NCBI GenBank assembly: GCA_964291235.2
Contig: OZ219816.1
Location: 1,760,001-1,824,000 of the forward strand
Reading direction: 5' to 3'
Source of the DNA: Vicinamibacteria bacterium
Lineage (GTDB): Bacteria; Acidobacteriota; Vicinamibacteria; Marinacidobacterales; Marinacidobacteraceae
Length of the DNA: 64,000 nucleotides
In this document: positions 16,701 to 21,031 of the stretch, one piece after another
Numbering within the stretch: the first letter of the stretch is position 1
Layout of the letters: each line of letters begins with the position of its first letter
The notes under the pieces: model-generated
Told to the model about the DNA's origin: nothing
Seen by the model: only the letters and a program-made list of their open reading frames with translations
Databases searched by the model: none
Made by a program: the position numbers and the translations under genes

Positions 16701-17876
16701 TTCCGGGGCGAGACCGGCAGCGACGACCAGCTCGTCCAGTGGGACTCCCCGATCTCGCCGCCGGAGGCCTACGGGATGCTGGCGCGGATGTCCGAGTTCC
16801 CCGAAGCCACGGTTTACAAGATCGGCGAGAGCTACCTGGGCCAGTCCACCTGGGCGATGGATCTGATGCCGCCTATGGAGGCAACGCACTGGTCGCAGCG
16901 GAAGGCGAGCCTGCTGAAGCCGACGATCGTCTATAGCGCCCGGCAGCACGCGAACGAGGTTTCCTCCACGTCGCACGTGCTGCGGCTCGCCGAGATGATC
17001 CTGACCGACGAAGAGCACGGGAAGAAGCTGGACACGGTGAACGTGATCGTCCATCCGATCCAGAATCCGGACGGCGCCCAGCTCGCCTGGGACATGCACC
17101 AGTACAACCCCGAGCACATCCTCCATGCGGGATATTGGGGGTCGCTCGGCATCGACTCCACGACCGACAGCGACGAACCGATGCCGATCTATCCGGAGGC
17201 CGAGGTGCGCCCGCGGATCTGGCGGATGTGGCTACCCGACATCTTCCTGAACCCGCACGGCTACCCCGCGCACCAGCTCGTGCAGCTCTTCAGCGAGTTC
17301 AGCGGCCTCGTCCGGGCCGGGCGCCGCACCGAGCGCAACTGGGGCTTCAACAAGGGCTGGTTCATGCCCGGCTTCGACGTGGTGGACGACCCCGAGTTCC
17401 CGCGCCACAAGGCGGCGGCGCTCAAAATCCGCGGCTACATCACGAACGCGATCCAGGCGACCGGACCGGTGGCGGCGATGAACCAGCGCAACTACGACCG
17501 CTACCGCCGCTACGGGATGCAATTCGAACCCGAGGTCTTCCGGATGGACCTCCACAACGGAGTCAACATCGGGATGCCCATCAAGGGCCGCCTCGCGAGC
17601 GCCGCCGGACGTGGCGGCCGCGGCTACGACCCCAAGATCACCATCTGGGCGGCGGGCACCGAGGCCCCGGACGAGCCGGCCCGCGGCGACTGGATGAAGA
17701 TCGTGGCGTCAGCGGGACTCGCCTGGGACACCGCGGTCCTGCAGTACCTGCTGGACGGAGACCACAAGGTCAACCGGAACACCAGCGAGTTCTTCGGCGG
17801 CGTCTCGATCCGGCTGGATCGGCCGCGCCCGCCGGAGGACCCGGAGGAGGAAGAAGAAACCGAAGAAGGTCAGTAG
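13734..17876 (+). CDS. Large secreted M14 family zinc carboxypeptidase
   Basis: GTG after AGGAGG, signal peptide; C-terminal ARQHANE (HxxE), QNPDG and LNPHGY motifs. Confidence 0.85.
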   Translation: MRTSALVLSLVVLLGAAGPAVAQPESLAALYELGGAVSDPNGDGVADRLNARVVLSGSPSAAEVAIAADLAARLGFETMALNLPMPTDAEMEIAVGDEALSRLGMSGMGDLAAGWGAVELHTAGDSVIVAVRGGDDAGLAAAAAWLASRAPHVFRTDGESLSDVEAAVLSAAGDAAMDAHTIRVEVEAGAHALAAAEVRVGAADGAAAGAIASAVESAGDELRFDSLATLRVVAAHSGGESAASVSHDPPAPDAGPVPGRPGSGSKNDLGLAVLYEPSGLLGDSNGDRIPDRLDSRLAVTAEDPGGTVALAARLGLESSGMDFPVATAAGDVDEPGGQPTLVVVGTAGENPLLADLAVPDLGAGEGFVGVVPEAFGKKHALAITGGDQAGLSRALYQTAVGLPHLDAANRRKDHPTVDGVEFAAWKFLSQRSPGGQAAAALYKLERIAAEVSHLGIGSSKILVSVKDPAPGLDDFVAAAAERLGLGEASVELDDRNVDNAAVIHEEEFAVPSEVEEFRGLVQERLLPAVGRGDRVRVMVHLSEPAAVRHSLRDELVTDLRGRGATVSDGDVVVLSAYRQGYSWIEEVVLPRLLALREGGTPTARVRLLFREHRPPEDWPQQAMHTPLRWQHAMFPADEIMAEALLLDLGDVGYELRAEQDAPAYQVVAEDANGEVLLNETFEPRLVSRPFMDRYPDYEWIQVTTGGITAQVDGATVVDERIRMDAEAFWDHYQSDTLARVYDYIMELHEGKPRGPADAPYFGQLKVVLSLSEPERRLGVEQEIESTHDALHEDIYFVTHSFLRHIGRNSLGTELTYGGRVIPEMRGKTDGTPGTAHILFTGFKTSRPAIVVDYTTTDGTMGTVRRNIPKVEVGRPRAMTARVSAGNSGLDALRLRVKVDTDADERDYYVERHGEDAADERIMSAAQTTRVVELLGELRAAGLYSDELAFAGLGELEVAASWTWDYEADTERTVTLAANGAPPPFPDIMTFRGETGSDDQLVQWDSPISPPEAYGMLARMSEFPEATVYKIGESYLGQSTWAMDLMPPMEATHWSQRKASLLKPTIVYSARQHANEVSSTSHVLRLAEMILTDEEHGKKLDTVNVIVHPIQNPDGAQLAWDMHQYNPEHILHAGYWGSLGIDSTTDSDEPMPIYPEAEVRPRIWRMWLPDIFLNPHGYPAHQLVQLFSEFSGLVRAGRRTERNWGFNKGWFMPGFDVVDDPEFPRHKAAALKIRGYITNAIQATGPVAAMNQRNYDRYRRYGMQFEPEVFRMDLHNGVNIGMPIKGRLASAAGRGGRGYDPKITIWAAGTEAPDEPARGDWMKIVASAGLAWDTAVLQYLLDGDHKVNRNTSEFFGGVSIRLDRPRPPEDPEEEEETEEGQ

Positions 17877-18025
17877 CCTGACCCGGCTTCGCCCGCCCAC
17901 GCGGGCGAAGCCAAGAGCTGCTGCGGGACCGGCTGGCACAGCCCGCCGCAGCCGGGCGGCGGGACGTATCGCCGCTAGCGCGGAAGCGCGGGCGACCGCA
18001 AGGGAGCCCCCTATAGGATCGGCGA

Positions 18026-18217
18026 CGTCCTGCGGGAGCTGAGATTCAGCTGCCGTTGTATCAACTCAGGTTGGCCAATCCGCCGGGAGTACTAACTGAG
18101 CCCCGGTGCTGCGAGCACCTACGGTGGACACGTACCCCGACGGATGGCCGTGATGGACGACCAGTGGAGAGTCGGTTCCAATCGAGAACCAGTATAGGGG
18201 CTGGACAGCATCGCGGC
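18026..18217 (+). ncRNA. Predicted IS110 bridge RNA (5' stem-loops, target-binding loop, donor-binding loop)
   Basis: Target loop: GTAC-...GAGCCCC-[GGTGCT gcg AGCACC]-ta-CGGTGG-...-GTAC (18089-18135). Donor loop: CCAG-TGGAGAGTC-[GGTTC caatcga GAACC]-ag-TATAGG-gg-CTGG (18161-18204). The guides match the flanks and element ends. RNA ends are estimated. Confidence 0.82.
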
Positions 18218-18260
18218 GCGGCGGACCTCCGACGGAGCGCAAGCTCGAAGGAAGACAGCG

Positions 18261-19523
18261 ATGAAGCAGAAGCTGAGCTGGTTCGTGGGCATCGACTGGG
18301 GCGAGCAGAGCCACCAGGTGTGCCTGTGCGACAGGCGCGGGAAGGTGCGCGGGGAGCGCGCCTTCGCGCACAAGGGATCGGGGCTGGCGGCCCTGGTGAA
18401 GTGGCTTAGGAAGCAGACGGGTGTGCCGCCGGCGCGGGTGGCGGTCGCGATCGAGCGGCCGGATGGGGCGGTGGTGGCGACGCTGCTGGAGGCGGGGTTT
18501 GCGGTCTATGCGGTGAACCCGCGGCAGACGAGCCACCTGCGGAAGTTCATCTCCCACCCGGGGCACAAGAACGACCGGCGGGACGCCCGGATGTTGGCCA
18601 CCACGCTGCAGGCGAGCCTGGCGGGGTTCCGGCTGCTGGTGCCGCTACCGGGGTTGGTGCTGCGGCTGCGGGAGCGGACCCGGACGGCGGACCGTCTGCT
18701 CCAGGAGCAGGTCCGGCAGTGCCTGCGGATCCGGAGTGCGCTGGTGGACTACTTCCCGCAACTGCTGGAGGTAGCCGGCGAGGCGAAGAACCTGGGGACT
18801 CCGTTCTTCCGGGAGTTGTGGGCTCGGGCTTCTACGCCGGCGAAAGCGCGGAAGGTGTGGTTGTCCACGTTGGAGAAGCTGGTTCGGCGGTATGGAGTGA
18901 CCCGGATCAGCGCCGCGCGGATCCAGGCGTTGTTCCGGGAGCCGGCGTTGGTGATGGCGCCGGGGGCGACCGAGGCGTCGGTGGAGACGATCCGCACGGC
19001 GCTCGCGCAGTTGGAGGTCGTGCGAGCGGAACTCGTCCGGGCGGAGGGCCAGATGACCCAGCTGCTGGACGAGTTCTCGGAGACGGCGGAGGCCGGGGGT
19101 GGTTCGGATGCCACGGGCCTGGATCTGGTGAGCGCGTTGCGCTCACGCCCGGGCGCGGGGGACAAGGCGCTGGCCCGGTTGTTCGCCTGGGGCTTCGAAG
19201 CGCTCTCGGAGGGGAACTACCGCCGTCTGCGCGCCTACTGTGGAGTAGCCCCGATCGAGGACCAGTCCGGCAAGTCCGCACAGCTCCGGCAACGGCGCGC
19301 CGTTCCCAGTTCGCTGCAACACGCCACCTACATCCTGGCGCGGGGGGTCGTCCGCTGGGACGAGAAGGTGGCGGCCTACAACCGGAAGTTGAAGGCGGAA
19401 GGGAAGCACACGGCCCGGCGCCACCGGAGCATCGCGGATCAACAACTCCGGGTGCTGTGCGCGATGGCCCGGAACCGAACCCTCTTTGATCCCAACTTCT
19501 CCCAGAAGCGGAGGGCCGCCTAA
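18261..19523 (+). CDS. IS110 family DEDD recombinase/transposase
   Basis: FVGIDW (D), AIERP (E), KNDRRDA (D,D) RuvC-like domain; C-terminal YCGVAP..DQSGKS with the catalytic Ser. Confidence 0.95.
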   Translation: MKQKLSWFVGIDWGEQSHQVCLCDRRGKVRGERAFAHKGSGLAALVKWLRKQTGVPPARVAVAIERPDGAVVATLLEAGFAVYAVNPRQTSHLRKFISHPGHKNDRRDARMLATTLQASLAGFRLLVPLPGLVLRLRERTRTADRLLQEQVRQCLRIRSALVDYFPQLLEVAGEAKNLGTPFFRELWARASTPAKARKVWLSTLEKLVRRYGVTRISAARIQALFREPALVMAPGATEASVETIRTALAQLEVVRAELVRAEGQMTQLLDEFSETAEAGGGSDATGLDLVSALRSRPGAGDKALARLFAWGFEALSEGNYRRLRAYCGVAPIEDQSGKSAQLRQRRAVPSSLQHATYILARGVVRWDEKVAAYNRKLKAEGKHTARRHRSIADQQLRVLCAMARNRTLFDPNFSQKRRAA

Positions 19524-19528
19524 CGCTC

Positions 19529-19549
19529 TTGCGTTCTCGTGGAAAGTCC
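19529..19549 (+). promoter_or_regulatory. -35 half of the IS110 circle-junction promoter (the -10 TAGGAT is at 18014-18019)
   Basis: TTGCGT (19529-19534) + 15 nt of right end + TA (18012-18013) gives a 17-nt spacer to TAGGAT once the ends are joined. Confidence 0.7.
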
Positions 19550-19675
19550 ACCGGGAGAACTGGGCCGGACTCCAGGCCTGCACAGCCCCCGCCCGAGGCG
19601 TGCGACGGCGCTATTTCCTGGGCCCTGAGCAACGATGGATGCAACATCGCGATGGGGCCGGGGCCGACGTCCAGA

Positions 19676-20608
19676 CTATCCCCCGAGATACATGTTGTCG
19701 TTGTGCCAACGGAGGAAATCCTCCCCTGGTCGATACTTGGGATCGTCAGGAACTGCGATGCCTCGGCCGTGGTGCGGGTAGTAACTGCGACCGTTCTCGT
19801 AGTCGTCACGCAGTCGGTCACTTACCTCAAGTCTTAGCTCAGGCGTAACGGTCAGATACCCCTTGTCGAATAGGCGGTGGAGGTCCGCGCGCAACAGCAG
19901 TCCGTTCGAGATCTCGTGCGGGCCGGCATCAGCATACGGCCTGATGTGCGCCGCTTCGAGGGCAGGCAGGGAGTGCTCTTCGGTGACAGCACAGGCACCG
20001 CCGTACGCGTCCGCGACCGCGATACGGAAGGTCCCCTGACCCAGCCGCGGCGTCACAAGCTGCCCCTTGCCATAGCGCACGAGAGCCTCGCCGGAAGCTT
20101 CCGCCGGCCAATATCCCATGTCACCGAGTTCCGTGACATGTCCCATGCACGCCATCCAGATGCGCCGTCCCTCGTCCCGCGAAAGGTCGTACCGCTTGCT
20201 CGTCAGGTTGTTGGCAGACCAGTCCGCAGGCTGCGGGATCCAGAACTCGCGCGGAAAGAAGACTGCATTGCTCAGCACGATGCAGCCGATCCCGCCGGTG
20301 TCGCTGGAACTCCTTCGGGCTCGGATTTTCTGCAACCGGGCCTTCATGGCTCCGTAGGAAGGCGCTCCGTTCCCTTCCCCGAAGCACTCCCACGCCAGCC
20401 ACTCCGGAAGTGGCACGTATCGGTTGACTTGGCCGAAACCGCACACCGCGTTGTGCGGGTGCTTGAGCTTGAAGAAAAAGGGAGTGCCCGCTGCGCCCCG
20501 AAACCCGGCCCGCGCGGAAGGACGCCAGAAGTTGACCTCGCTCCAGAAGCCCCGCCGCGACAGATGCTCATACCAGCCGTCGTCGGTAACCGCGACATAT
20601 CCCTGCAT
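19676..20608 (-). CDS. HNH endonuclease, putative restriction endonuclease
   Basis: RLGQGTFR..V..AY...CAVT...LEAAHIRPY...NGLLLRADLHRLFDKGY; N-terminal AVTDDGWY..VNFWRP domain. Confidence 0.88.
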   Translation of the reverse strand: MQGYVAVTDDGWYEHLSRRGFWSEVNFWRPSARAGFRGAAGTPFFFKLKHPHNAVCGFGQVNRYVPLPEWLAWECFGEGNGAPSYGAMKARLQKIRARRSSSDTGGIGCIVLSNAVFFPREFWIPQPADWSANNLTSKRYDLSRDEGRRIWMACMGHVTELGDMGYWPAEASGEALVRYGKGQLVTPRLGQGTFRIAVADAYGGACAVTEEHSLPALEAAHIRPYADAGPHEISNGLLLRADLHRLFDKGYLTVTPELRLEVSDRLRDDYENGRSYYPHHGRGIAVPDDPKYRPGEDFLRWHNDNMYLGG

Positions 20609-21031
20609 GGTCAAGATTCGCTGTTCGGCACCTCGGAGGTGCGCAAATCAGCGTAACCAAGCGTACGTTACGCGGTTCCGATCGCTTGTTTTCGCGCTCT
20701 GGAGGTCCCTGGGTGGCTCCCGGCATCAGGACACGCCAAACAACCCGACCAACGCAAGCGGCTTGGAGCCCCCACTGGGAGAAACGCCCGAGTGCCCGTC
20801 TTCTGCACACCCCGCCGGGCGCGACGATCCGATATCGGACTCCGCGTCCCTCGAAAGAAACGGGCGCTATGCCGTTCGCGGCCTCTGGCCGCGGTGTCCA
20901 CCCGGAGGCAAGTTCTCCCGGTGGGGGCCAGCGTCCCAAGGCGTTTCGGCGTTCTCGCTCGGTCAGAGATGCACTACCTAGGCCTGACCGCATCTTCACG
21001 GCACTGGGCCGGCTTCCGGCCAGCCCGAATC

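Follow-up and report, generated by a model that had tools for sequence, protein, structure and literature searches.

A CC-core IS110-group insertion sequence with a predicted bridge RNA for a REP-like target in a Vicinamibacteria genome

A 64,000-nucleotide (nt) stretch of a Vicinamibacteria bacterium genome (contig OZ219816.1, positions 1,760,001 to 1,824,000; hereafter the window) carries an insertion sequence of the IS110 group, made up of a non-coding left end of 249 nt (18012-18260), a gene for a recombinase of 420 amino acids (aa) and a right end of 26 nt (19524-19549). A long left end that carries an RNA is described as a trait of the IS110 group, unlike the IS1111 group. The original prediction, made from this sequence, was that the locus holds a complete bridge-RNA recombinase system with the architecture of IS621, and every coordinate it gave proved correct when the sequence was re-read. 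Here, the element was delimited from its other copies and from empty sites, its recombinase was compared with known structures, and its left end was aligned with those of relatives. The features of the locus are collected in Table 1.

Five copies of the element, with 98-100% nucleotide identity, are present in the genome (two contigs, 3.45 Mb), and their junctions are identical in all five (left, ...GGGAGCCCCC^TATAGG...; right, ...GTGGAAAGTCC^ACCGGGAGAACTGGGCC...; ^ marks the junction). Occupied and empty sites differ by the element and one CC only, as for a scarless insertion without a long target duplication. This comparison leaves two nucleotides (CC) that can be assigned to neither side, and the element is therefore 1538 bp long (18012-19549 including the right-hand CC core copy; equivalently 18010-19547), with GAGCCC-CC-ACCG as its target and GTGGAAAGT-CC-TATA as its donor joint. 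Both sequences had been reconstructed earlier from this one locus and are borne out by the five copies and 21 empty sites. A check for differing ends among the other copies and empty sites returned the same junctions in 5/5 copies, with the CC core fixed by the empty sites. The 420-aa frame is open in every copy (amino-acid identity 99-100%) and the guides are intact, which supports the description of the element as intact.

By its Pfam domains, invariant catalytic residues and fold, the 420-aa protein is an IS110-family DEDD/Tnp recombinase, in agreement with the original prediction. It matched PF01548 over the full profile (E 4.6e-28) as well as PF02371 (E 1.4e-8), and none of D12, E65, D105, D108 and S336-G337 varies among eight relatives, the most distant of which has 30% identity. 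The best sequence match in the PDB was ISCro4 (E 2.6e-7), and IS621 was also matched. The catalytic residues fall in stretches aligned to ISCro4 (9t56) and IS621 (8wt6), with S336-G337 lined up with the Ser-Gly of ISCro4. AlphaFold2, run on the eight-row alignment of these relatives, gave a model (predicted local distance difference test, pLDDT, 85.8) whose top fold matches were IS621 8wt9/8wt6 (E 2.4e-10, target-normalised TM-score 0.66-0.67), and all ten of its best Foldseek matches came from IS621 or ISCro4 (chains at E 2.4e-10 to 3.7e-9, with target-normalised TM-score 0.66-0.68). Model confidence was low at the serine loop and at the loop ahead of the third and fourth acidic residues. The protein exceeds IS621 by ~90 residues, with additional helices at about 167-225 that separate the long helices 131-164 and 236-273.

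Four guide segments can be read in two internal loops of the left end. For IS621, bottom-strand pairing is described for the left target and left donor guides (LTG, LDG) and top-strand pairing for the right target and right donor guides (RTG, RDG), with the core inside the pairings (Durrant et al. 2024, PMC11208160). The two target guides of the first loop (GAGCCCC and CGGTGG) and the right donor guide of the second (TATAGG, the reverse complement of core plus TATA) were confirmed where they had been placed. The proposed left donor segment, TGGAGAGTC at 18165-18173 with one G:T pair, kept its position and its wobble and was refined to 18164-18173, a 9/10 match. Each guide pair also brackets a small inner hairpin (18105-18119 in the target loop, 18174-18190 in the donor loop) in a common register at the core, as previously stated, with the refinement that LTG and LDG each include the first core C only. 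In addition to these segments, bases corresponding to the handshake guides of IS621 were found. These are two bases directly 3' of RTG and RDG, which pair after strand exchange with the left-arm end of the other partner and must not pair with that of their own (Hiraizumi et al. 2024, PMC11208158). Here they are AC (18128-18129) and GG (18199-18200), and their complementarity makes both 8-nt segments full reverse complements (8/8 each), 18122-18129 of the right junction GT-CC-ACCG and 18193-18200 of the left junction CC-CC-TATA.

Table 1. Coordinates of the insertion sequence, its flanks and its predicted RNA features in the window.
Feature	Position	Strand	Details
Left target half GAGCCC and left CC core copy	18004-18011	+	GAGCCCCC; within REP-like repeat; common to five copies; runs on into ACCG in 21 empty sites
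Insertion sequence, IS110 group	18012-19549	+	Five copies, same junctions; starts TATAGG at 18012
-10-like hexamer TAGGAT	18014-18019	+	17 nt downstream of right-end -35-like hexamer in circular form only
5' stem-loop of predicted bridge RNA	18034-18054	+	Minimum-free-energy fold
Target-binding stem-loop (predicted)	18078-18145	+	Outer stem 18078-18092/18132-18145; internal loop with target guides; inner hairpin 18105-18119
LTG GAGCCCC	18098-18104	+	Sense of left target plus first core C; would pair with bottom strand
RTG CGGTGG and handshake guide AC	18122-18129	+	RTG 18122-18127, reverse complement of CC+ACCG; AC complementary to donor GT
Donor-binding stem-loop (predicted)	18147-18217	+	Outer stem 18147-18155/18209-18217; short stem 18161-18164/18201-18204; inner hairpin 18174-18190
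LDG GTGGAGAGTC	18164-18173	+	9/10 match to right-end terminus GTGGAAAGT plus first core C; mismatch is rG:dT
RDG TATAGG and handshake guide GG	18193-18200	+	RDG 18193-18198, reverse complement of CC+TATA; GG complementary to target CC
Recombinase gene, 420 aa	18261-19523	+	RuvC-like DEDD domain (D12, E65, D105, D108), long helical coiled-coil region, Tnp domain with S336-G337
Right end	19524-19549	+	-35-like TTGCGT 19529-19534; left donor GTGGAAAGT 19539-19547; core CC 19548-19549
Right target half ACCG... and remainder of REP-like repeat	19550-19596	+	ACCGGGAGAACTGGGCCGG.CTCCAGG..GCACAG; in five copies and empty sites

Matches of this length might arise by chance in GC-rich, repeat-rich DNA, given a genome of 68% G+C in which C/G-rich motifs are common. 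Segments defined from the flanks and element ends, not from the RNA, were sought in 20,000 mononucleotide shuffles of 18018-18260. Singly, the four segments occurred in 734, 214, 167 and 70 of the shuffles (0.35-3.7%), whereas at least two appeared together in 26 and all four in none. The loop-1 pattern including its spacing is found once in the window against 0.02 expected. The segments, moreover, flank two conserved hairpins at the correct positions, and junctions in relatives of different sequence are predicted by the same rule (both described below). Chance similarity is refuted as far as sequence analysis reaches, and we consider it exceedingly improbable.

Folding and covariation of homologous left ends, proposed earlier as a check, supported the two-loop architecture in 21 relatives; the alignment used for this purpose excluded two rows that looked misaligned (L091 and L120). 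For each loop, RNAalifold recovered an outer and an inner stem, and 16 of the 25 pairs it called show compensatory changes. Pairing was kept at 96% in helix 2 of the target-binding stem-loop and at 93% in helix 4 of the donor-binding stem-loop, with both-side changes in 5/9 and 7/9 pairs, respectively. A curated structure of 37 pairs was also projected from the fold of this copy. Minimum-free-energy folds pair parts of the guides with each other (e.g., 18100-18102 with 18123-18125), and these guide-guide pairs were taken out because they are not conserved. The curated structure was 83% paired, compared to 30-46% when partners were slid by 1-3 columns, 22 of its pairs change on both sides, and none of 500 shuffles reached any of the five measures. 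Frequent series of C-G, U-G and U-A fit an RNA of the plus strand. Within the genome itself, three copies have U:A and two (c4/c5) have C:G at pair 18040:18048 of the 5' stem-loop, and both changes also occur together in contigs of public runs. The left end had no Rfam family match at E up to 1.

If the segments are guides, they should change with the DNA that they read. Homologues were present in 10 of 61 related genomes searched (the window's own counted), and a scan of genome contigs returned 80 related loci. The nearest lie in records titled Vicinamibacteria and in Ca. Marinacidobacterium metagenome-assembled genomes, the farther ones in Rhodothermales, Arenicellales and Alphaproteobacteria. 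Upstream regions of the 80 loci and the window were clustered into 23 groups, one representative of each was aligned, and guides were read by alignment column alone; the junctions they predict (12-14 nt, at most one mismatch) were searched for in the flanks with the RNA body excluded. Predicted junctions were located in cognate flanks for 15/23 groups on the left and 18/23 on the right, against 18/506 and 27/506 non-cognate pairs, nearly all of them sister groups with the same guides; as the 23 groups are mutually related, these counts are descriptive and not probabilities. The handshake bases followed the rule described for IS621. Among groups with located junctions, the last base of the left target has its complement in the first handshake base of the donor loop in 14/15, and the last base of the left donor in that of the target loop in 17/18. 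Complementarity of the target-loop base to its own left target was seen in 0/12 groups, and at the donor-loop base a G:T wobble with its own donor is possible in 8/12.

Individual relatives illustrate how the guides follow their flanks, as expected of the proposed architecture. The relative G014 (82% aa identity) has the same target, and its LDG carries A at the position that is A in its donor. In G004 (63-64% aa), the LTG is AGGCCCC with flank AGGCCCCC and the LDG ends ...GGAGAGT, as does its donor, so that the A/G position of the LDG follows the donor in both (A with A in G014, G with G in G004). In a more distant group (42-43%), the LTG reads ACCGGAGG and the RTG is TC+CGGCG in reverse complement; the site, ACCGGAGG-TC-CGGCG, thus has a TC core. 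The LTG of a 36% group, ATGGAGCGC, adjoins flank ATGGAGCGCC. At located junctions the core was CC in 13/15 groups on the left and 18/18 on the right; the two TC left cores belong to the 42-43% group, in which a one-base register shift makes both junctions fit TC. Judged from these sequences, the CC core is a trait of nearly the whole sampled clade and is not special to this copy.

Two further observations concern the extent of the related elements. Right ends among relatives range from 14 to 843 nt (L051, L057, L058, L094, L130 and others), compared to 26 nt here, and in some relatives, as seen in G004, a long right end contains internal repeats. In G008, copies of the 42% relative (L066-L071; also L025, L035, L042 and L049) share more than 500 identical nt upstream of the expected left end, and the element there seems either to lie inside a larger repeated unit or to be lengthened by one.

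The covariation also bears on whether the internal matches of a genuine IS110 insertion sequence might act as DNA, in the form of subterminal repeats or transposase-binding sites, without a guide RNA. Relatives in the IS1111 group are classically described by subterminal inverted repeats, in line with such a role. However, the loop-1 segments match host DNA outside the element and vary with that host DNA across relatives, and the stems keep their pairing via G-U intermediates and double changes, on the plus strand only. Experiments on IS621 are, furthermore, reported to show that the RNA is the specificity determinant (PMC11208160; PMC11208158). Action at the DNA level is accordingly regarded as very improbable, and the segments are read here as parts of a bridge RNA.

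Among characterized systems, IS621 of E. coli is one of the closest to the element. As described in the published accounts, IS621 likewise has a DEDD RuvC-like domain, a coiled coil and a Tnp domain with a catalytic Ser-Gly, and a bridge RNA in a long left end whose two internal loops hold same-sense left and reverse-complement right guides around a 2-nt core. It also has 2-nt handshake guides just 3' of RTG and RDG, a REP-type (repetitive extragenic palindromic) natural target and a promoter split across the circle joint, a feature that is predicted here. In contrast, the two recombinases share ~19-20% identity in the fold alignment, and the protein described here has 420 aa instead of 326 aa, its ~90 extra residues lying in the helices that separate the RuvC domain from the Tnp domain. 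The core is CC and the target GAGCCC-CC-ACCG, compared to CT and ATCAGGC-CT-AC in IS621. The LTG extends over one core base instead of two, the RTG has 6 nt instead of 4, and the RDG is contiguous, unlike the discontiguous pairing reported for IS621. ISCro4/IS622 of Citrobacter rodentium (PDB 9t56), the best PDB sequence match, has the same fold and is reported to be 88% identical to IS621 (10.1101/2025.05.14.653916); it is thus as distant from this element as IS621 is. The IS621-type architecture put forward in the original prediction is therefore upheld by the two-loop structure, the covariation and the strand rules, and its suggestion of a different natural specificity holds relative to IS621.

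Closer to hand, the sister elements in G014 (82% aa), G004 (63-64%) and the 42-43% group (G004/G008/G013) have the same RNA scaffold. Those of G014 and G004 also have a CC core and a repeat target identical or almost identical to the one here, whereas the 42-43% group has a TC core and a 7-nt RTG, and right ends among these sisters measure 207-711 nt. IS1111-group/seekRNA systems belong to the same recombinase family and are described as having an RNA that reads both target and donor; they differ in that their RNA lies in the right end and that they have long subterminal inverted repeats, whereas the predicted RNA here lies in the 249-nt left end. As read from sequence, the defining features of an IS110-group bridge-RNA element that can be assessed in this way are present, the promoter across the circle joint being a candidate. 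A literature search with the wording 'CC core', IS110 and bridge RNA returned no paper, although the supplementary tables of Durrant et al. may list this orthologue or its core.

The landing sites of the element are supplied by a REP-like system with the motif CCCCCACCGGGAGAACTGG. This motif has ~130 matches in the genome (136 at up to three mismatches, the five occupied ones included), and the flanks of the copies are alike for some tens of bases because all of them sit in one REP-like repeat. The exact 12-nt site, GAGCCCCCACCG, has 21 unoccupied occurrences, compared to 3.7 expected from base composition. The motif is embedded in several distinct repeat families, some of which form long palindromes with the reverse complement of the motif, and in the window the motif is found at about 23733, 37350, 40959, 41078, 46447, 47862 and 53591. 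Elsewhere in the genome (C2:1720150-1720750; loci L016-L020), a tandem array with a period of 138 nt (4.2 copies) holds a near-target site, ACGGAG[CT]CCCC^ACC[AG]GGA[AG]AACTG..., in each unit, and the left flank in the window (17950-18005) resembles these units at 79-85%.

Occupied and empty sites were also compared by REP subfamily, using a hand classification and count of the list of 21 empty sites. All five insertions lie in one subfamily (GGGAGCCCCC^ACCGGGAGAACTGGGCCGG/A.CTCCAGG...), whereas a second one (TCGAGCCCCC^ACCGGGAGAACTGGGCCGCGGGGGTTTTGCC..., i.e., TCGAGCCCCC...GGGGGTTTTGCC) accounts for ~11 of the 21 empty exact sites and is never occupied. Were all sites equivalent, 5/5 insertions would fall in the first subfamily, which has 10 or 11 of the 26 sites, with a chance of about 0.004-0.007. 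This distribution hints, tentatively and with the odds still against it, that the ~12-14 nt which the bridge RNA reads may not suffice for target choice in the CC-core clade. Local structure of the repeat DNA might act as a second layer, as might the coiled-coil region, which is enlarged in this 420-aa recombinase. For ISPpu10, another IS110 element, a 2026 preprint appears to describe a second layer of target choice.

Expression was considered in the integrated and in the circular form. In a circle closed over one CC, TTGCGT (19529-19534) would lie 17 nt upstream of TAGGAT; it agrees with the -35 consensus at three of six positions. A TTG... hexamer (TTGACA in several) is found 15 nt before the right-end terminus in 18/18 relatives with a located right junction. 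Assembled Logan contigs break at the element ends (18027 and 19539), and in runs X1 and X2 contig depth is higher over the element body than over the flanks. One contig of depth 3 in run X5 joins 18038 to 19548, skipping 1509 nt, with 28 letters on its shorter side. As an excision product this joint was rejected, as it is not the precise joint expected, and it was not used as evidence; it may be a deleted derivative, a repeat of another organism or an assembly artefact.

These data are relevant to the question of whether the architecture is genuine while the family is now inactive in this host, its copies being recent, unexpressed relics. Such a history would fit the 21 exact target sites that are empty, the promoter scan of the integrated state, which gave no hit, and the contigs examined, in which neither a circle nor a clean excision joint was seen. 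On the other hand, all five copies have open 420-aa frames (99-100% aa identity) and intact guides, the compensatory change from U:A to C:G preserves pairing in the 5' stem, and silence when integrated is described as the expected state of IS110 elements. Inactivity is therefore regarded as very improbable.

Taken together, the locus is best read, with a probability of about 0.9, as an intact insertion sequence of the IS110 group, with a bridge RNA encoded in its left end that reads a REP-like target and the element's own joined ends. The comparisons above establish where the element ends, its CC core, the family and fold of its recombinase, an RNA structure with two loops, and guides that are complementary to their sites and covary with them, and the terms 'programmable' and 'active' would extend to this element what is known of its homologue IS621. 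Under this reading, the element would excise as a circle that joins right end to left end across one CC. The circle joint would set the -35-like hexamer 17 nt upstream of the -10-like one, from which a bridge RNA of ~190 nt (roughly 18026-18217) and the recombinase would be transcribed, with a transcript start near 18026 predicted from the joint promoter. The first internal loop would then hold the REP-like target GAGCCC-CC-ACCG, the LTG on its bottom strand and the RTG on its top strand, and the second loop would hold the donor joint GTGGAAAGT-CC-TATA likewise. A recombinase tetramer would cut beside CC through composite sites formed by DEDD and Ser336, the handshake guides AC and GG would capture the exchanged top strands, and resolution of the Holliday junction would give a scarless insertion flanked by CC.

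Several points weigh against this interpretation. The LTG spans the first core base only (both in IS621), and the LDG carries one mismatch (rG:dT). Junction prediction missed in 8/23 groups on the left and 5/23 on the right, some of the misses being loci truncated at contig ends (L076, L111) or seemingly misaligned rows (L091, L120), and the related groups are not phylogenetically independent, so that the counts overstate significance. A sigma-70-type promoter scan of the integrated locus returned 0 sites, the -35-like hexamer of this copy fits just three of six consensus positions, and neither a circle junction nor a clean excision joint was seen in the assembled Logan contigs. The 21 perfect target sites stay unoccupied, which means that activity may be low or that target choice has further requirements. 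Finally, expression, circle formation, recombination and reprogrammability are predicted through homology.

Outside the element, a perfect GC-rich hairpin (17885-17912) lies just past the upstream open reading frame (stop at 17876). Two matches of this hairpin to the Rfam family CRISPR-DR28 were below threshold (24.3 and 21.9 bits; gathering score 35) and its assignment as a CRISPR repeat was rejected; it looks like a terminator or a REP-type hairpin. On the other side, the neighbouring minus-strand gene (19676-20614) points towards the insertion site; its product has 312 aa and an HNH_2 endonuclease domain (PF13391, E 5.8e-13).

Of IS110 elements, 85.7% had already been predicted to have a bridge RNA, and the family is described as typically targeting REPs. 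The present element leaves the mechanism, described in 2024, unchanged; what it contributes is a natural bridge-recombinase system with well-defined ends from a lineage that has been little studied. Its CC core, 6-nt RTG, contiguous RDG, both handshake guides, predicted junction promoter and larger recombinase can all be read, and empty and occupied natural targets lie side by side in one genome. The element would therefore make a convenient test case for the flexibility of the core sequence, for minimal core pairing and for the selection of natural sites beyond base pairing.

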